Shown: piece after piece, positions 3,851-8,456 of the stretch
Layout of the letters: every line of letters starts with the position of its first letter
Numbering within the stretch: position 1 is the first letter of the stretch
Source of the DNA: Candidatus Poseidoniaceae archaeon
GTDB taxonomy: Archaea; Thermoplasmatota; Poseidoniia; Poseidoniales; Poseidoniaceae
Direction: 5' to 3'
Assembly (NCBI GenBank): GCA_965662895.1
Contig: CBFIJH010000003.1
Coordinates: forward strand, 69,693-133,692
Length of the DNA stretch: 64,000 nt
The notes under the pieces: model-generated
The model's database searches: none
Seen by the model: only the letters and a program-made list of their open reading frames with translations
Told to the model about the DNA's origin: nothing
Made by a program: the position numbers and the translations under genes

Positions 3851-5200
3851 TCATCGATTCTTCTTTTTCTTTTCTTCGGCAATGGCTTTCATTTCTCGAG
3901 AGGATTTCCCACCGCGAGGCTCTTTCTTTCCACCGGATTGCGAAATGTCAACTTTTAATCGTCGACCGTTGAGTTCTTTCCCGTTGAGGGCTTTAACGAC
4001 GTCATCACCCTTGTCTTTCTCATTGATAAAGACGAAAGCGAATCCTTTCGGTTTGCCGCCTTTGTCCGTTGCGATGGCAATTTCATTGATCGTCGCTGCA
4101 TCACCAAAGAATGCAGTAATCGCCTTTTCATCCGCATCGAATGGCAGGTTACCGACGTAGAGTTTCAATCCCTTTGCCGGTCCTTTCGAACGCTTTTCTT
4201 TGTTGTCAGCATCTCGAACACCAATGCGACGTCCATGCAAGCGATGTCCATCAAGTTCCTTGATTGCAGCCTCAGCGTGTGATTTTTCCGTGTACGTTAC
4301 AAATCCAAATCCTCTTGATGCTCCTGAATCATCGGTCATGACAATGCAATCCGTCATGTCACCATGCTTGCCAAAGAGTTCGCGAAGTTTTTCTGTGTCG
4401 ACCTCTCGAGGAAGCCCTCCAACGAACAAGCGGCACCCTGGCGCTGCTCTCTGTCGACGACCTCCACTCTGACCTTGGCCTACAAACCGGAAATACGTTC
4501 GCTCTCGCCCATCTTCACGGACGTCAGCAGCAATGTATGTTGCGCGACCAGAGGAACCATGAGCAAACAGTTGTTCAGCCTCCTTGCCCCAACGCTTTCC
4601 CGAGAGGTTCAATGTGGAGGCACCTTGCTCCAATTCGGCCCAACCAGCACCGAAGTTATCAGCAAGTGCACGATAACCTTCGTATTCGCACGTTGGACAA
4701 GCAACGTTCCAATCACCGTTGACATGCGCCTCGAGGGTATCTCCACAGGGGGGACAAATTGCATGCAAAACGCCACAATCATCTCGTTCTCGGAAATCGA
4801 GTCGAACAACGGGTTCAATTTCGGTGACAATCGCACGCGCAACATCTCTTCGTCGTACTGCATCCGCAACGGTGTGAAGGAAGCGATCGACGATTCTCGT
4901 GACGTGGAAGTGTCCGTGGAGCTGATGCGGAAGAACGTCCCCGCTCTTTCCTTCGACGGCGAGGATGCGTGCTTCACCACCCTTTTCTTGCAGTTTTTCG
5001 AATTGGCACAGGACTGTGTCACCAATCTGAATGTTAACAATGGATTTTGTAGCGTCAACGATGATGTGTTCGTCTTCAATGCGCATGTAGCCCGTTGTTG
5101 TTGCCACGATGTGGTCATCAACAGTGGTTGTTCCTTCGCCAGCTCGATGTTTGCCGACGGTTCCAATTCTTGTTCCTGGGGTGACGAGGCTCGTCGTCAT
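3851..5200 (-). CDS. csl4: Exosome cap subunit Csl4 fused to two C-terminal RRM domains
   Basis: N-terminus VTPGTRIG...AGEGT, S1-like region, GVLHAICPPC...CPTC Zn ribbon; then LFVGGL/RGFGFVTY and LYVGNL/KGFAFVFI RNP2/RNP1 pairs. Lies directly downstream of a METTL5-type gene, the usual csl4 neighbour. Start could be 5218 or 5200. Confidence 0.8.
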   Translation of the reverse strand: MTTSLVTPGTRIGTVGKHRAGEGTTTVDDHIVATTTGYMRIEDEHIIVDATKSIVNIQIGDTVLCQFEKLQEKGGEARILAVEGKSGDVLPHQLHGHFHVTRIVDRFLHTVADAVRRRDVARAIVTEIEPVVRLDFRERDDCGVLHAICPPCGDTLEAHVNGDWNVACPTCEYEGYRALADNFGAGWAELEQGASTLNLSGKRWGKEAEQLFAHGSSGRATYIAADVREDGRERTYFRFVGQGQSGGRRQRAAPGCRLFVGGLPREVDTEKLRELFGKHGDMTDCIVMTDDSGASRGFGFVTYTEKSHAEAAIKELDGHRLHGRRIGVRDADNKEKRSKGPAKGLKLYVGNLPFDADEKAITAFFGDAATINEIAIATDKGGKPKGFAFVFINEKDKGDDVVKALNGKELNGRRLKVDISQSGGKKEPRGGKSSREMKAIAEEKKKKNR

Positions 5201-5296
5201 ATTTTCAACTCGCTGCACAAGCTGCCGATGTATCGACGCGTTGTGCTATTTTGATGCGAGCGATGCTCCCTTTTCAACCCCTCACATAGGTTTGCA

Positions 5297-5917
5297 TCAT
5301 TTTTTCTTCTCGAGACGATAGCATCGTATGCGGGTCGAAGCCTTGTTTTTTGAGTGATGAGCATAGGCAGCAGGTAGGCGAAAATCGTCCTGATAAATTG
5401 AATGCAACGCATAGCCATTGTTGTGAGCAAGGGGTAAAAGATGCTCAGCACCAATGCTGTGAAGAAAATGAATAATCGGTATTTGCATTGCAAAAACCGT
5501 CTCAAAAAACACACGATCTGCGCGTTGGGTTTGAACACCCCACGGAGGGTTCATGATGGCAATGTCAACGGATTTTTGCAAGTCGATTGGACTTCCGATA
5601 ACGGTCTGTTCGAGTACCGTGCACATTGAATCACCCTCGACATCCTGGACATTTTTTCTCAAGACATCGACGGTTGTTGCGTCACACTCGATCAGCGTAA
5701 CGTGGGCTGCGCCAAGAAAGGCTGCACCTATTCCCAGAACTCCATTTCCAGCACCGAGGTCGAGAACGTGTTTCCCTTCGAATCCATCACCAAGATTGAT
5801 TTTGGTTAACCATGCAGCGGCTAGGTTCCCTTCAGTTGGATACTGTTCAAGTTCAACGGAGTTGCATGGGTGTGGAGAAAGTGACGAAAGGCGCATCGCA
5901 AGATGCCGTTGACGCAT
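5297..5917 (-). CDS. METTL5-family N6-adenine RNA methyltransferase
   Basis: LEQYPT motif, VLDLGAGNGVLG SAM motif, MNPPWG catalytic motif, Y.HH near C-terminus. Confidence 0.88.
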   Translation of the reverse strand: MRQRHLAMRLSSLSPHPCNSVELEQYPTEGNLAAAWLTKINLGDGFEGKHVLDLGAGNGVLGIGAAFLGAAHVTLIECDATTVDVLRKNVQDVEGDSMCTVLEQTVIGSPIDLQKSVDIAIMNPPWGVQTQRADRVFFETVFAMQIPIIHFLHSIGAEHLLPLAHNNGYALHSIYQDDFRLPAAYAHHSKNKASTRIRCYRLEKKK

Positions 5918-5921
5918 GCAT

Positions 5922-6164
5922 TCACCAACGTCGCTGTTGACCGAATTGTTGGTTGTTGAATTGTTGTTGCTGTTGCATCTGAGCGGCGTACTGAGCCTGT
6001 TGCATGGCTTGTTGATTGCTCATCATCAAAGCGATTTGACGAATCTGCTCTGCTTCCATTCGAAGACGTTGGATGAGTTGCTCACCAGGTTGTTGGTTGC
6101 CACAGAACCTACAAAATCGCATTCCATCGTGCAGGGATTGTCCACAAGCCACACAGAACGCCAT
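5922..6164 (-). CDS. Small zinc-ribbon protein with Gln-rich tail
   Basis: FCVACG...RFCRFCG at N-terminus, then helical and Q-rich C-terminus; GGTGA-like SD upstream. Confidence 0.75.
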   Translation of the reverse strand: MAFCVACGQSLHDGMRFCRFCGNQQPGEQLIQRLRMEAEQIRQIALMMSNQQAMQQAQYAAQMQQQQQFNNQQFGQQRRW

Positions 6165-6207: not shown

Positions 6208-7263
6208 TCATTGAACTGCTGTTAGTTCCATGAACACTGGCCATGTTTCAAACCCAACCGCAGCGGCTCGTTCATTGATAGATTCCCAGCGAGGATCATC
6301 AACCATATCACTCGGTTCAACACCATTTCCAAGCAGTTCAGTGACCAGAGCACGGAATTCAATTTCGATTTCAGTTTGTGGCTGTTCAGCATCGGCTTGA
6401 GGAGCAAGTTCAGCTTCTTCCTCTGCGATTGCTGGAGGCGGTGAAGTCTGCAATTCCTTCAATTCGTCTCCTGCTGCTTGCATTTCTTCAAATCCATCGG
6501 TCGTCGCTTTGGTAATAGCCTCGCTCACAGACTGTGGTCCCTCATCTCCATCCGATTCGATTGTTGGGAGCGGTACTGATGTCTGTGCAGGTATTGTTAC
6601 CTCGCTGGCTTCGACGTGTGAAGGTGCAGGCGCAACTTCGACCTCTTCTGGAATTTGTTCCTCGACAACAACGGGCTCGGGCGTCGCAGGTTCGCTTGCT
6701 CTCCCCACGCCGAGGACTTCGGCTTGTTGTCGAGCCAACTCAGCAGCCTGTCGACGAGGAAGACTAACGAAGCACTTGTTGGGAATGGATGAAGGTGGAA
6801 ATGGAAGGTAGTACCGTTCGATTGCTGGGAGACTTGGGTGTCTGAAACAAATCATCGTGATGTTCTCAAATGCTCGTTGTGCAGGGACATCAACCGAAAA
6901 CGGGACGGGATGGACCGATATCGAACCGCGAACCCACTTTTCGCTCGTGACCATGTGCTGCATCCATGGGCCCAAATCGGATGTTGCAAGATCGAGGAAC
7001 TGGAAAGAAGCATCTCTTGGATTCAATCCTTGCTCTTCCAACAAGCGGGCTTCTGCTCGTGGTCGATGAAAAACCCCAATGACGGGTTGTCCATGCTCGA
7101 CCATATCGCCATGCATTTCGATAATTTTTCGCTCTTTTCGTGGACAGATGATCATCACTTGCATTCGCAATGCATCAGAGTCGAAGATGTCGCCCCAGCG
7201 ATCCTCTGCTTCGGAGAGAAGGCCACCGATGGTTGTGCCCGGAATCATTGCTGTTATTCCCAT
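6208..7263 (-). CDS. Hypothetical protein (globular N-domain, acidic Pro/Glu linker, small C-terminal helical domain)
   Basis: 351-aa ORF co-oriented between asd and the Zn-ribbon gene with short spacers; no family recognised. Confidence 0.7.
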   Translation of the reverse strand: MGITAMIPGTTIGGLLSEAEDRWGDIFDSDALRMQVMIICPRKERKIIEMHGDMVEHGQPVIGVFHRPRAEARLLEEQGLNPRDASFQFLDLATSDLGPWMQHMVTSEKWVRGSISVHPVPFSVDVPAQRAFENITMICFRHPSLPAIERYYLPFPPSSIPNKCFVSLPRRQAAELARQQAEVLGVGRASEPATPEPVVVEEQIPEEVEVAPAPSHVEASEVTIPAQTSVPLPTIESDGDEGPQSVSEAITKATTDGFEEMQAAGDELKELQTSPPPAIAEEEAELAPQADAEQPQTEIEIEFRALVTELLGNGVEPSDMVDDPRWESINERAAAVGFETWPVFMELTAVQ

Positions 7264-7267
7264 GTGC

Positions 7268-8365
7268 TCACGATTCCGATGAAGAAGAGGAGGGATTTAG
7301 GTCTACTGATGGAATCAGATTGTTGAAGTGTGCCAACTCTGCAAGAAGGAGTACGCCTCCTGCGGCGCCGCGAATCGTATTGTGGGAGAGTGCTTGGAAA
7401 GAAACAATACCTTGTTCCACCGAAACAAGATGAACAGTCGTTGTCATGCCTGCTTTGAGGTCAATCGATGGACGAATACCATCAAGCGTTTTTCCGTTCC
7501 ACAGATCACGGTCTCGTCGTGGCTTTGTGTCAATTATGACCATCGGAGCCTTGGGCTGACTTGGAAGAGGAACGATGCGATCTTGAAGGGTCGAATTGAG
7601 TTGCGTTTGTACGGAGTTAAATGATGGGCTATTGGCGACATGGACTTGGACGTTGACGATGTGGCCATCCACTTCATCCACCCGCTTGCATTGAACATCC
7701 CATTCGATGCCCTTCAAGTCGAGAATCCGCTCTGCCTCTTCCACGATTTTTTCGGCTTCGCCTGGAATTTCTTTCCCGACAGCATTCCTTCGTTGTTCAT
7801 CGTCAATGAGGAGTTTCCACCCTGCTCCAGAAAGCGCCTGCTTACTCCGAACTACAACCTTGGTAATGGTGTGGTGTTCCGAAAGAATCGAGAGTGGGTG
7901 GAGGAGCGGAATAAGCGTGCAGTTTGTCGCACATGCATGCAGGGCTCGATGTGCAGAAGAGCGAACCAGTGCCTCTGGATTGACATCAGCTACGACGAGT
8001 GGTACATCTTGATGCATGCGATAAGCACTTGCATTGGAAAAGACGTCGATGCCGGCGTCAACAAGTCTCTTTTCAATTTGCAGAGCAGGCGCACTTGGCA
8101 AAGCACTGAAGGCGATCTGGACTTCTGCATCCAACAATTTTTCCTCGAGTTGGGGATGATGAATATCGAGAATTTTGATGCTACTCTCAGCAAGAAATGC
8201 GGTTTGATCCTGCTCAAGATGCCAGTCAATTTTTGAGAGTTTCATGCCACTCTTTCGGCCTGCTACTGCGACAAGTTCAAACCACGGGTGGTTTGAGAGC
8301 CGCTGTTGCATACGTTGTGAAACGAGGCCTGAAGCACCGAGTATCGCAACTCGAAGCCTTCGCAT
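7268..8365 (-). CDS. asd: Aspartate-semialdehyde dehydrogenase (archaeal type)
   Basis: LGASGLV, HPWF, SNASAYRM..DVPL, catalytic NCT, QALSGAG, HNTIRGAAG. Confidence 0.85.
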   Translation of the reverse strand: MRRLRVAILGASGLVSQRMQQRLSNHPWFELVAVAGRKSGMKLSKIDWHLEQDQTAFLAESSIKILDIHHPQLEEKLLDAEVQIAFSALPSAPALQIEKRLVDAGIDVFSNASAYRMHQDVPLVVADVNPEALVRSSAHRALHACATNCTLIPLLHPLSILSEHHTITKVVVRSKQALSGAGWKLLIDDEQRRNAVGKEIPGEAEKIVEEAERILDLKGIEWDVQCKRVDEVDGHIVNVQVHVANSPSFNSVQTQLNSTLQDRIVPLPSQPKAPMVIIDTKPRRDRDLWNGKTLDGIRPSIDLKAGMTTTVHLVSVEQGIVSFQALSHNTIRGAAGGVLLLAELAHFNNLIPSVDLNPSSSSSES

Positions 8366-8456
8366 GACAAACAACTAGGCTCCGTTGATTTAGTCCCTTG
8401 CTTTCGGAATTTGCCTCAAAGCATATGTTCAAGTGCTAAACGGCTAAGGCGTAGTC

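Follow-up and report, generated by a model that had tools for sequence, protein, structure and literature searches.

Little is understood of substrate choice by the archaeal exosome, and the selectivity known to date lies in Rrp4 and in DnaG, which is a separate protein. In eukaryotes, RNA is brought to the exosome by separate RRM proteins, such as RBM7 of NEXT and Nrd1-Nab3, which act via the Mtr4 or Sen1 helicase or via Rrp6. In this study, we analysed a 64,000-nt window from a Candidatus Poseidoniaceae archaeon (assembly GCA_965662895.1, contig CBFIJH010000003.1, positions 69,693 to 133,692), in which one gene appears to join the exosome cap subunit Csl4 to two RRMs within a single polypeptide. 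This locus raises the questions of whether the gene is a genuine csl4, whether the fusion is real, and what RRMs attached to the cap would do.

The csl4-RRM gene and its neighbourhood

The csl4-RRM gene is one unbroken ORF, spanning 3851 to 5218 on the minus strand and encoding 455 aa if it starts at an in-frame GTG (5216-5218), which adds six residues. The likely start is the ATG at 5198-5200, which was chosen because the relatives start with MTTSLVTPG, and from which a protein of 449 aa beginning with the same residues is read. The uninterrupted frame at 3851-5200 originally predicted from the DNA is therefore in agreement with the start of the relatives. From the N-terminus, the protein is composed of an N-terminal domain, an S1 region, a four-Cys Zn ribbon, a module of ~60 aa, a Gly/Arg linker, two RRMs and a basic tail (Table 1). 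No fixed placement of the RRMs is given by the AlphaFold2 model of the full protein (pTM 0.42).

Table 1. Positions in the window of the csl4-RRM gene, its parts and its upstream neighbour
Feature	Position	Strand	Remarks
Whole csl4-RRM gene	3851..5200	-	449 codons plus stop (3851-3853)
Complete Csl4 moiety, aa 5-183	4652..5188	-	NF034126; 2ba1_A by phmmer and Foldseek; ECR1_N
N-terminal ring-anchor domain (predicted) of the Csl4 moiety	about 5078-5188	-	ECR1_N and 2ba1_A alignment
Four-Cys Zn ribbon	4688..4756	-	CPPC 4745-4756 (aa 149-152); CPTC 4688-4699 (aa 168-171)
Conserved order-specific module, aa 176-235 (...LNxxGKRWG...AAD.REDGRER...)	4496..4675	-	After the Zn ribbon; ~60 aa
Gly/Arg-rich flexible linker, aa 236-255	4436..4495	-	Variable in length and sequence across the alignment
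RRM1	4223..4429	-	RNP2 LFVGGL 4412-4429; RNP1 RGFGFVTY 4292-4315; RRM_1 78.9 bits
RRM2	3953..4162	-	RNP2 LYVGNL 4145-4162; RNP1 KGFAFVFI 4025-4048; RRM_1 57.7 bits
Basic C-terminal tail	3854..3943	-	GKSSRE[LM]xAxxEE (3872-3904), then Lys/Arg run
Upstream neighbour, METTL5/PH1948-type N6-adenine methyltransferase (NPPW motif)	5297..5917	-	PDB phmmer

Classically, csl4 adjoins a methylase gene. The gene upstream of csl4-RRM encodes a full-length homologue of PH1948 (1wy7_A, E 3.2e-24) and of human METTL5 (E about 5e-21) by phmmer against the PDB, which confirms the COG2263/METTL5-type methylase expected beside csl4. The order methyltransferase then csl4 is kept within Poseidoniales as well as in the sister order.

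The N-terminal part is a complete Csl4

Judged from its sequence, the gene is an orthologue of archaeal Csl4, the Zn-ribbon cap subunit of the RNA exosome. The NCBIfam equivalog for Csl4, NF034126, matches the protein over profile positions 2-178 of 180 with 90.7 bits (cut-off 90), and a six-frame search of the genome gives 93.5 bits, again a small margin over the same cut-off. As phmmer with the full-length protein against the PDB gave RRM proteins only, the Csl4 half was searched by itself, and its residues 5-186 align with positions 3-177 of Archaeoglobus Csl4 (2ba1_A, 179 aa; E 9.5e-11). The same structure is the top Foldseek match of the AlphaFold2 model (E 2.3e-16, TM 0.63 when normalised to target length).

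Among the Pfam families that the predicted architecture had called for, RRM_1 was found, ECR1_N falls marginally short of its cut-off (26.9 bits against 27, profile 1-37 of 38, with the 2ba1_A alignment beginning at residue 3), and EXOSC1 is absent. The Pfam scan of the csl4-RRM protein gave no separate S1 match either; a relative from family f3 has a weak EXOSC1 match. The S1-like region is spanned by both the Csl4 profile and the 2ba1_A alignment, and it is all-beta in the model with a pLDDT of 82-92. In the Zn ribbon, C149 and C168 are invariant among 27 sequences, and C152 and C171 are conserved in at least 90% of them.

The Csl4 moiety is markedly diverged, since its score of 91-93 bits is far below the 133-158 bits of Csl4 in the sister order. 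It is nevertheless the sole above-cut-off Csl4-type match found by six-frame search in this 92%-complete genome. The N-terminus had been predicted to be Csl4, and both the profile and the solved structure, the latter by phmmer and by Foldseek, indicate a genuine and complete one, and the only one of the genome. The size assumed for a normal archaeal Csl4, about 180 aa, also holds, as 2ba1_A has 179 aa, the profile 180 positions and the proteins of the sister order 184-186 aa.

The C-terminal extension

In the module of ~60 aa that follows the Zn ribbon, R177, R203, W204 and D226 are invariant in all three families. The module has no Pfam match, and residues 176-256 gave no usable match in the Protein Atlas; the AlphaFold2 model shows short helices at 194-220 with a pLDDT of about 79. 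Between residues 217 and 252 the pLDDT is below 50.

Pfam RRM_1 (PF00076) matches two stretches of the extension with a total of 128.9 bits (E 6.6e-38, cut-off 20.7), which bears out the RRMs with clear RNP2 and RNP1 motifs originally placed from about 4430 and 4160. The RNP1 and RNP2 assignments follow the general consensus of these motifs. Their aromatic residues are retained in all aligned sequences having the respective domain, 21/21 for RRM1 and 26/26 for RRM2. DSSP of the model gives the beta-alpha-beta-beta-alpha-beta pattern at 257-330 and 345-419 (pLDDT about 80-85), and Foldseek matches the model to the tandem RRMs of Sxl, HuD, hnRNP A1 and PABP with E values of 1e-13 to 1e-15. RRM_1 was detected nowhere else in the 92%-complete genome.

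The Lys/Arg-rich tail, likewise part of the original prediction, is evident in the translation. Its GKSSRE[LM]xAxxEE motif is kept in families f1 and f2, and f3 has RGG repeats instead. A helix is predicted at 434-447 with low confidence by AlphaFold2.

The fused frame recurs throughout the order

An error of assembly or sequencing, or a chimeric contig, could have fused neighbouring csl4 and RRM genes, and some public gene calls are in fact short, Csl4-only or RRM-only, a few of them on long contigs (P0122, 533 kb; P0144, 939 kb; P0154, 1.5 Mb). However, the seven short calls that were examined are frameshifted or truncated, with out-of-frame ends or internal-Met starts, and most of the remaining ones come from contigs about 1 kb long. 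Moreover, three independent studies yielded contigs that run through the csl4-RRM ORF with neither gaps nor indels, the frame is intact in 22/22 genera, and the best 120 near-length relatives are all 373-528 aa long, 119 of them with a query coverage of 94-100% and the remaining one, P0009, with 83%. An artefact is thus extremely improbable, and this recurrence together with the independent gapless contigs refutes it for practical purposes; independent assemblies and relatives alike show a single gene rather than two.

Csl4-type matches at E <= 3e-14 were found in 149/151 Poseidoniales genomes, representing 22/22 genera. The two exceptions are each about 93% complete: the assembly of G016 has only a weak match (E 7e-4) and no RRM, and that of G039 has no match. 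The recurrence of the fused frame in so many genomes of the order makes the architecture more than a chance event. RRM_1 lies inside frames of 301-598 aa in 48/49 genomes of f1 and 25/26 genomes of f3, and the Pfam architecture was checked on eight further ORFs of the order. The cassette of f1 has two RRMs; that of f3 consists of a treble-clef Zn finger, which occupies the place of RRM1, a single RRM and an RGG tail.

In the sister order, Csl4 is of normal size at 184-186 aa, and a single RRM is found in a separate protein of ~90-108 aa. In the phylum outside the class, RRM_1 was found in 29/189 sampled genomes, and it is present in most sister-order genomes, always in small stand-alone proteins, which were read from open frames of 80-158 aa. 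RRMs had been assumed to be rare in archaea. Their absence from the four archaeal control genomes (0/4) is in line with this assumption, but their presence in these relatives qualifies it, and their distribution in archaea is better described as patchy.

A single RNA run contained part of the stretch (share 0.10), in the form of one 164-nt metatranscriptome contig at 4294-4456. This is too little for claiming transcription, because DNA carry-over may explain it.

Exosome partners encoded in the genome

The genome also encodes the exosome core on which such a Csl4 would depend. Rrp41 scores 323.7 bits (cut-off 318.7), while Rrp42 (239.8 bits, cut-off 280) and Rrp4 (165.1 bits, cut-off 200) are below their cut-offs, yet each is the best match in the genome. 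All three, whose presence was a point left to be checked by the original prediction, sit in the canonical superoperon PsmA-SBDS-Rrp4-Rrp41-Rrp42-L37ae. DnaG is encoded as well (363 bits, cut-off 300, with the NCBIfam profile matched only to position 283 of 419), and was found in 40/41 Poseidoniales genomes. A complex prediction for residues 1-256 of Csl4 with DnaG (score 0.00, mark 0.32) weighs neither way on binding.

Origin of the RRMs

Two RRM domain trees of 81 columns were built, a careful one with 78 rows and a quick one with 90 rows, after removal of 5 and 12 near-duplicate sequences, respectively. The RRM1 of f1 groups with the RRMs of f2 (100/96, starred, in the careful tree; 95, starred, in the quick tree), and the RRM2 of f1 with the single RRM of f3 (93/85 in the careful tree and 88 SH-aLRT in the quick tree, not starred). 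In the careful tree the stand-alone archaeal RRMs are united in a single starred clade (99/85), and in the quick tree they are spread over several small unresolved groups; neither tree places the fused RRMs among them. Descent from the stand-alone RRM of the sister order is hence rejected as an established fact.

Two-RRM proteins from the alga Tribonema provide the outside rows that are closest to the RRM1 clade (92/85 and 88). Since this grouping is not starred, and its sampling is biased because the rows were picked as best matches to the query, acquisition from an alga is likewise rejected as an established fact. When RRM1 was searched by itself, with 48 candidates scored, the nearest stand-alone proteins were 41-53% identical and bore names from Myxococcota, Magasanikbacteria and fungi.

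Proposed function and alternatives

Taken as a whole, these sequence data suggest that the product of csl4-RRM probably sits in the exosome cap and uses its tethered RRMs to capture single-stranded RNA, with the extension gained in the stem of the order. In this scenario, Csl4 would have acquired the module, the linker, two RRMs and the basic tail in the stem of Poseidoniales (Marine Group II). The N-terminal domain would, like that of Csl4 in other archaea, attach the protein to the Rrp41-Rrp42 ring, and the RRMs, at most one pair per Csl4 in a trimeric cap, would bind single-stranded RNA close to the entry pore. The binding of RNA by the RRMs may then increase capture and processivity in phosphorolytic 3'-5' decay, and possibly in the reverse tailing reaction too. 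Because DnaG is still encoded, the RRMs would come on top of it, working beside DnaG rather than replacing it. As a precedent, Csl4 has been reported to be the docking subunit for DnaG, whose binding to the exosome requires Csl4 in Sulfolobus (PMC3672285), and for aRNase J (PMC7144898).

Alternatively, the Csl4-like part may have left the exosome and become, with its S1 region, Zn ribbon and RRMs, a free RNA-binding protein or chaperone, with a cap made of Rrp4 only. Such neofunctionalisation would account for the divergence of the Csl4 moiety, and exosomes without Csl4 have been reported in some archaea, namely Undinarchaeota and Cluster 2 DPANN (PMC7414124). Nevertheless, we regard it as quite unlikely, given that the anchor domain is still recognisable, that the moiety matches both the profile and the solved structure end to end, that the N-terminal and S1 regions contain residues invariant in three families, and that the synteny with the methyltransferase is that of a normal csl4. 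The retention of DnaG in nearly all genomes examined also argues against it, in view of the reported dependence of DnaG on Csl4 for exosome binding in Sulfolobus (PMC3672285).

It is also conceivable, albeit unlikely, that the protein is exosome-bound while its extension directs the exosome to a single process, for instance the maturation of pre-rRNA or of ribosomes, regulates or occludes the pore, or binds protein partners. The adjoining homologue of a METTL5-type rRNA methyltransferase, the location of the core exosome genes beside SBDS and a ribosomal protein gene, and the reported binding and tailing of rRNA by the Sulfolobus DnaG-exosome (PMC4227792) would fit a role in a single process. 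The linkages to the methyltransferase and within the superoperon, however, are uninformative about the RRMs, because they are also present where Csl4 has no extension. Binding of partners would be consistent with the conservation of the ~60-aa module and of the SSRE..EE motif, neither of which is a known RNA-binding fold. In addition, the presence of a Zn finger in f3 where RRM1 sits means that number and type of the modules are not fixed. Speaking against these proposals, both RRMs have retained the canonical aromatic residues for RNA contact in every sequence examined.

A more specific and tentative possibility is that the extension is a modular built-in adaptor, either an RRM pair or a Zn finger with an RRM and RGG repeats, that confers a sequence- or tail-selective choice of substrates such as A-/U-rich 3' tails or pre-rRNA, with the ~60-aa module and the SSRE..EE motif as docking sites. 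Such an adaptor would be a counterpart of the adaptor-guided targeting seen in eukaryotes, with a separate origin and with different forms in the two main families. Cold-adapted recruitment of RNA, originally suggested as an alternative to sequence selectivity, is speculative. If true, the most abundant planktonic Euryarchaeota would possess an independently evolved prokaryotic version of this strategy.

Comparison with known systems

Like canonical Csl4, for which Archaeoglobus fulgidus AF_0206 (2ba1_A, 179 aa) serves as reference, the protein described here has the predicted anchor domain, S1 and four-Cys Zn ribbon aligned throughout, is encoded in a single copy and is accompanied by Rrp4, Rrp41 and Rrp42. 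Unlike it, the protein has about 265 additional C-terminal residues and a more diverged Csl4 part. A laboratory precedent is the engineered Csl4-NT fusion of Sulfolobus solfataricus (Hou et al. 2014, PMC4227792), in which the N-terminal RNA-binding domain of DnaG was attached to the C-terminus of full-length Csl4, leaving the N-terminal anchor free. In the laboratory, this fusion was reported to assemble a homotrimeric cap and to enhance the decay of A-rich RNA (PMC4227792). It is, however, man-made and carries a domain with poly(A) preference (PMC4227792), whereas the present fusion is natural, order-wide, and equipped with RRMs or with a Zn finger and an RRM. A natural fusion thus mirrors a working engineered one, and offers a simple reconstitutable system for the effect of an added RNA-binding arm on the exosome.

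Archaeal DnaG resembles the extension in that it reportedly adds RNA-binding capacity on the Csl4 side of the cap and recruits particular RNAs (PMC3672285, PMC4227792), but it is a separate polypeptide with a TOPRIM fold. With the eukaryotic NEXT and Nrd1-Nab3-Sen1 adaptors there is a parallel in function alone, in that the RRMs would deliver RNA to the exosome. In the present protein the RRMs are covalently joined to a core cap subunit, no helicase link is evident, and the protein is not a member of those complexes. The prokaryotic stand-alone RRM proteins (NF058537, Rbp_regulator) share the RRM_1 domain and its canonical RNP motifs. Although the csl4-RRM protein reaches 103.7 bits with this profile (cut-off 100), a score summed over the two RRMs of a 449-aa protein, it was not classed as an Rbp regulator because its architecture differs from that of a single-RRM protein of ~80-110 aa.

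Across an entire order of uncultured and highly abundant archaea of the sea, classic RRMs are wired directly into the Csl4 cap subunit, in cassettes that differ between the two main families. No description of a natural Csl4-RRM fusion was found in the literature searched, and the main text of an MGII metatranscriptome paper (PMC9723583) has no mention of exosome, RNA-binding, RNA recognition, nucleolin or Csl4. The claim that the architecture is undescribed therefore stands for the literature, but less so for the databases, which already hold these proteins under automatic names. Relatives are called 'exosome complex RNA-binding protein Csl4' at NCBI and 'nucleolin' or 'polyadenylate-binding protein' at JGI, and each of these labels hides one half of a protein of roughly 450 aa.

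Sequence and domains of csl4-RRM

The minus-strand gene csl4-RRM is a single open frame of 455 codons from GTG (window 3851..5218), but since its relatives begin at the ATG at 5200 (MTTSLVTPG...), the gene most likely spans 3851-5200 and encodes 449 aa. In this numbering, residues 5-183 match the NCBIfam Csl4 equivalog NF034126 over profile positions 2-178 of 180 with 90.7 bits (cut-off 90), and phmmer, with the first 255 residues as query, paired residues 5-186 with positions 3-177 of Archaeoglobus fulgidus Csl4 (2ba1_A, 179 aa; E 9.5e-11). The Zn ribbon motif reads CPPC...CPTC. In Pfam, two RRM_1 domains were found (E 6.6e-38), and the N-terminal ECR1_N domain scored 26.9 bits, slightly below its cut-off of 27. 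The RNA-stacking aromatic residues are kept in 21/21 sequences of RRM1 and 26/26 of RRM2. All features described in the original prediction, namely the one ORF, the Csl4-type N-terminus, the Zn ribbon, the linker, the two RRMs and the Lys/Arg-rich tail, are present where it had placed them.

The order of the window's genome, which we take to be Poseidoniales, comprises three families (f1, f2 and f3). Aligned across them, the ~60-aa module has four invariant residues, R177, R203, W204 and D226; it has no family match in Pfam or Atlas and is possibly a docking surface. A variable Gly/Arg linker comes after it, and the C-terminus carries the motif GKSSRE[LM]xAxxEE with a basic run in f1 and f2, and RGG repeats instead in f3.

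Features of the csl4-RRM region and Logan contigs covering the gene
Feature	Window position	Strand	Remarks
Radical-SAM protein, 585 aa	2014-3771	-	C-terminal helix-hairpin-helix; directly downstream of csl4-RRM
Second RRM (RRM2)	3953-4162	-	RRM_1; RNP2/RNP1 = LYVGNL/KGFAFVFI
First RRM (RRM1)	4223-4429	-	RRM_1; RNP2/RNP1 = LFVGGL/RGFGFVTY
~60-aa module	4496-4675	-	Directly after Csl4 Zn ribbon; common to all three families of the order
80-aa protein	5922-6164	-	N-terminal Zn ribbon, Gln-rich tail
351-aa protein	6208-7263	-	Acidic, Pro/Glu-rich; without Pfam or NCBIfam match
Logan contig X2	3700-5287		
Logan contig X4	3902-5200		
Logan contig X13	3925-5200		

In an AlphaFold2 model built from a 27-sequence alignment (mean pLDDT 76, pTM 0.42), the Csl4 part is confidently predicted as all-beta, residues 194-220 contain short helices and residues 217-252 are disordered; both RRMs have the beta-alpha-beta-beta-alpha-beta order, and the C-terminal helix is of low confidence. 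Among PDB entries, Foldseek ranks 2ba1_A first (E 2.3e-16, TM 0.63 normalised by target length), followed by tandem-RRM proteins, best among them Sxl, HuD, hnRNP A1 and PABP. This likeness says only that the predicted fold is that of a classic single-stranded RNA binder.

Exosome genes and gene neighbourhood

In a six-frame profile search of the window's genome (1.86 Mb, 26 contigs, 92% complete), csl4-RRM is the sole Csl4, with 93.5 bits, a second, weak match being Rrp4, and it holds the only two RRM_1 matches. Rrp4, Rrp41 and Rrp42, which the original prediction had named for checking, all lie in the classical superoperon with proteasome alpha, SBDS and L37ae; Rrp41 scores above its cut-off, and Rrp4 and Rrp42 are the best matches, below theirs. 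All exosome genes are thus present in this genome, and its Csl4 orthologue is complete and conserved and carries both RRMs intact. A bacterial-type RNase PH is encoded alongside the exosome (L003:1108-1929(-), contig C5; TIGR01966, 240.5 bits, cut-off 141.5).

DnaG, a separate exosome subunit, is also encoded (L044:991-2280(-), contig C2; 363 bits, cut-off 300), and its match to the NCBIfam archaeal DnaG profile ends at position 283 of 419, the final ~110 aa departing from the profile. In a protein search (alignment A2), the match is nevertheless full-length (1-395) across f1 and reaches about residue 380-390 in f3. Since it is the C-terminal domain of Sulfolobus DnaG that matters for binding to the exosome, this region may have co-evolved with the modified Csl4.

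The upstream neighbour of csl4-RRM, also on the minus strand, is a methyltransferase gene whose product is homologous over its full length to Pyrococcus PH1948 and human METTL5. The radical-SAM gene directly follows csl4-RRM in 8/8 inspected loci of the order; in the sister order it follows csl4 in 0/2. The genes for the 80-aa and 351-aa proteins sit between the methyltransferase and an aspartate-semialdehyde dehydrogenase homologue (7268-8374).

Distribution of the fusion

The query matched 150/151 sampled genomes of the order at E <= 0.001, in 22/22 genera, and 149/151 at E <= 3e-14; G016 gave a weak match only (E 7e-4) and G039 none among these genomes, each being ~93% complete. Family codes are those of the tool. 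From source names ('Candidatus Poseidonia sp.', 'Candidatus Poseidoniaceae archaeon') and GTDB taxonomy, we assume that f1, which includes the window, is probably Poseidoniaceae (MGIIa), f3 Thalassarchaeaceae (MGIIb), and the sister-order families f4 and f5 MGIII.

The two-RRM architecture recurs in f1, where the match is full-length and RRM_1 occurs twice in ~460-600-aa frames (48/49 genomes). In f3, one RRM_1 was found in 301-503-aa frames (25/26 genomes), and six ORFs (L025:1790-3154(-), L026:1914-3224(+), L027:2054-3319(+), L028:2079-3368(-), L031:1316-2647(+) and L032:1591-2892(+)) have in Pfam the Csl4 region, a treble-clef Zn finger (PF23477, 28-50 bits), one RRM and then the RGG tail. 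The finger occupies the place of RRM1, and RGG repeats replace the SSRE..EE/Lys-Arg tail; the Csl4 scaffold thus bears in f3 another cassette, specific to that family. In the small family f2, comparison of L030:1708-2892(+) with L029:1514-2923(-) shows two RRMs on Csl4 in one genome and one in another. Domain trees place both f2 RRMs with the RRM1 clade, a hint that a duplication took place independently.

In the sister order, RRM_1 lies in 85-121-aa frames (39/45 genomes). Two such ORFs inspected (L022:1489-1815(+) and L018:1459-1743(+)) do not adjoin csl4 and encode proteins with a single RRM, one 94 aa and the other 108 aa long; one has a Gly-rich C-terminal tail, resembling cyanobacterial and plant glycine-rich RNA-binding proteins. 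Csl4 there scores 133-158 bits in 185-214-aa frames (5/5 genomes checked), and the two inspected (184 and 186 aa) come directly after the methyltransferase gene. RRM_1 was found in 90 of 251 sampled genomes of the phylum (completeness >= 80%); in this sample, it occurs outside the class in 29/189 genomes, always in 80-158-aa frames, and RRM-carrying frames >300 aa occur only in f1 and f3. From the distribution across order, sister order and phylum, we infer that the fusion arose at the csl4 3' end in the stem of the order and that the extension was remodelled afterwards.

Alternative explanations

That the fusion is an artefact is effectively excluded. Logan contigs from three different studies span the ORF with 0 gaps and 2-5 substitutions each, and among 8000 candidates scored, 859 proteins matched at E <= 0.001, the best 120 being near-length relatives (373-528 aa, 59-88% identical) with 94-100% query coverage in 119 and 83% in P0009. 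Seven short public gene calls inspected (P0122, P0123, P0135, P0144, P0154, P0169 and P0175) have an out-of-frame end or beginning or an internal-Met start, and most other short matches lie on ~1 kb contigs. The gene is one and not two, as had been predicted.

The low Csl4 score would suit a free RNA-binding protein that has departed from the exosome; however, conservation of the anchor, shared synteny and the retention of DnaG make this quite improbable. Rather unlikely, too, is a specialised or regulatory role of the extension, for example in rRNA maturation or partner docking.

Putative function

According to published work, Csl4 on its own is a weak poly(A) binder with no preference (PMC4227792, PMC3672285, PMC7144898), DnaG joins the exosome only with Csl4 and supplies the poly(A) preference (PMC3672285, PMC4227792), and aRNase J likewise binds Csl4 (PMC7144898). 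When the RNA-binding N-terminal domain of DnaG was artificially fused to the Csl4 C-terminus, the product formed a cap, and A-rich RNA was degraded more efficiently (PMC4227792). In csl4-RRM the RRMs are likewise added at the Csl4 C-terminus, but the fusion is natural. The protein is probably an exosome cap subunit with built-in RRMs. Its extension would leave the Csl4 anchor free and the two RRMs would hang beside the pore on a flexible tether, where they would help to capture single-stranded 3' ends that are to be degraded and perhaps also tailed. Since DnaG is retained in 40/41 genomes of the order, the RRMs would act in addition to it and not as a replacement.

In the main text of openly available papers, we found no description of Csl4 fused to RRMs or on RRMs in Marine Group II, and the consulted parts of the nearest papers (PMC7414124, PMC7144898, PMC4227792, PMC3672285, PMC9723583) make no mention of the fusion. 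Judged from sequence, the fusion is real, order-wide and biologically suggestive. The proteins are already in public databases under automatic names. Frameshifted or truncated calls of csl4-RRM occur in several public assemblies, some on contigs of 0.5-1.5 Mb, and annotation pipelines will therefore report spurious 'split' Csl4 and RRM proteins for these archaea.
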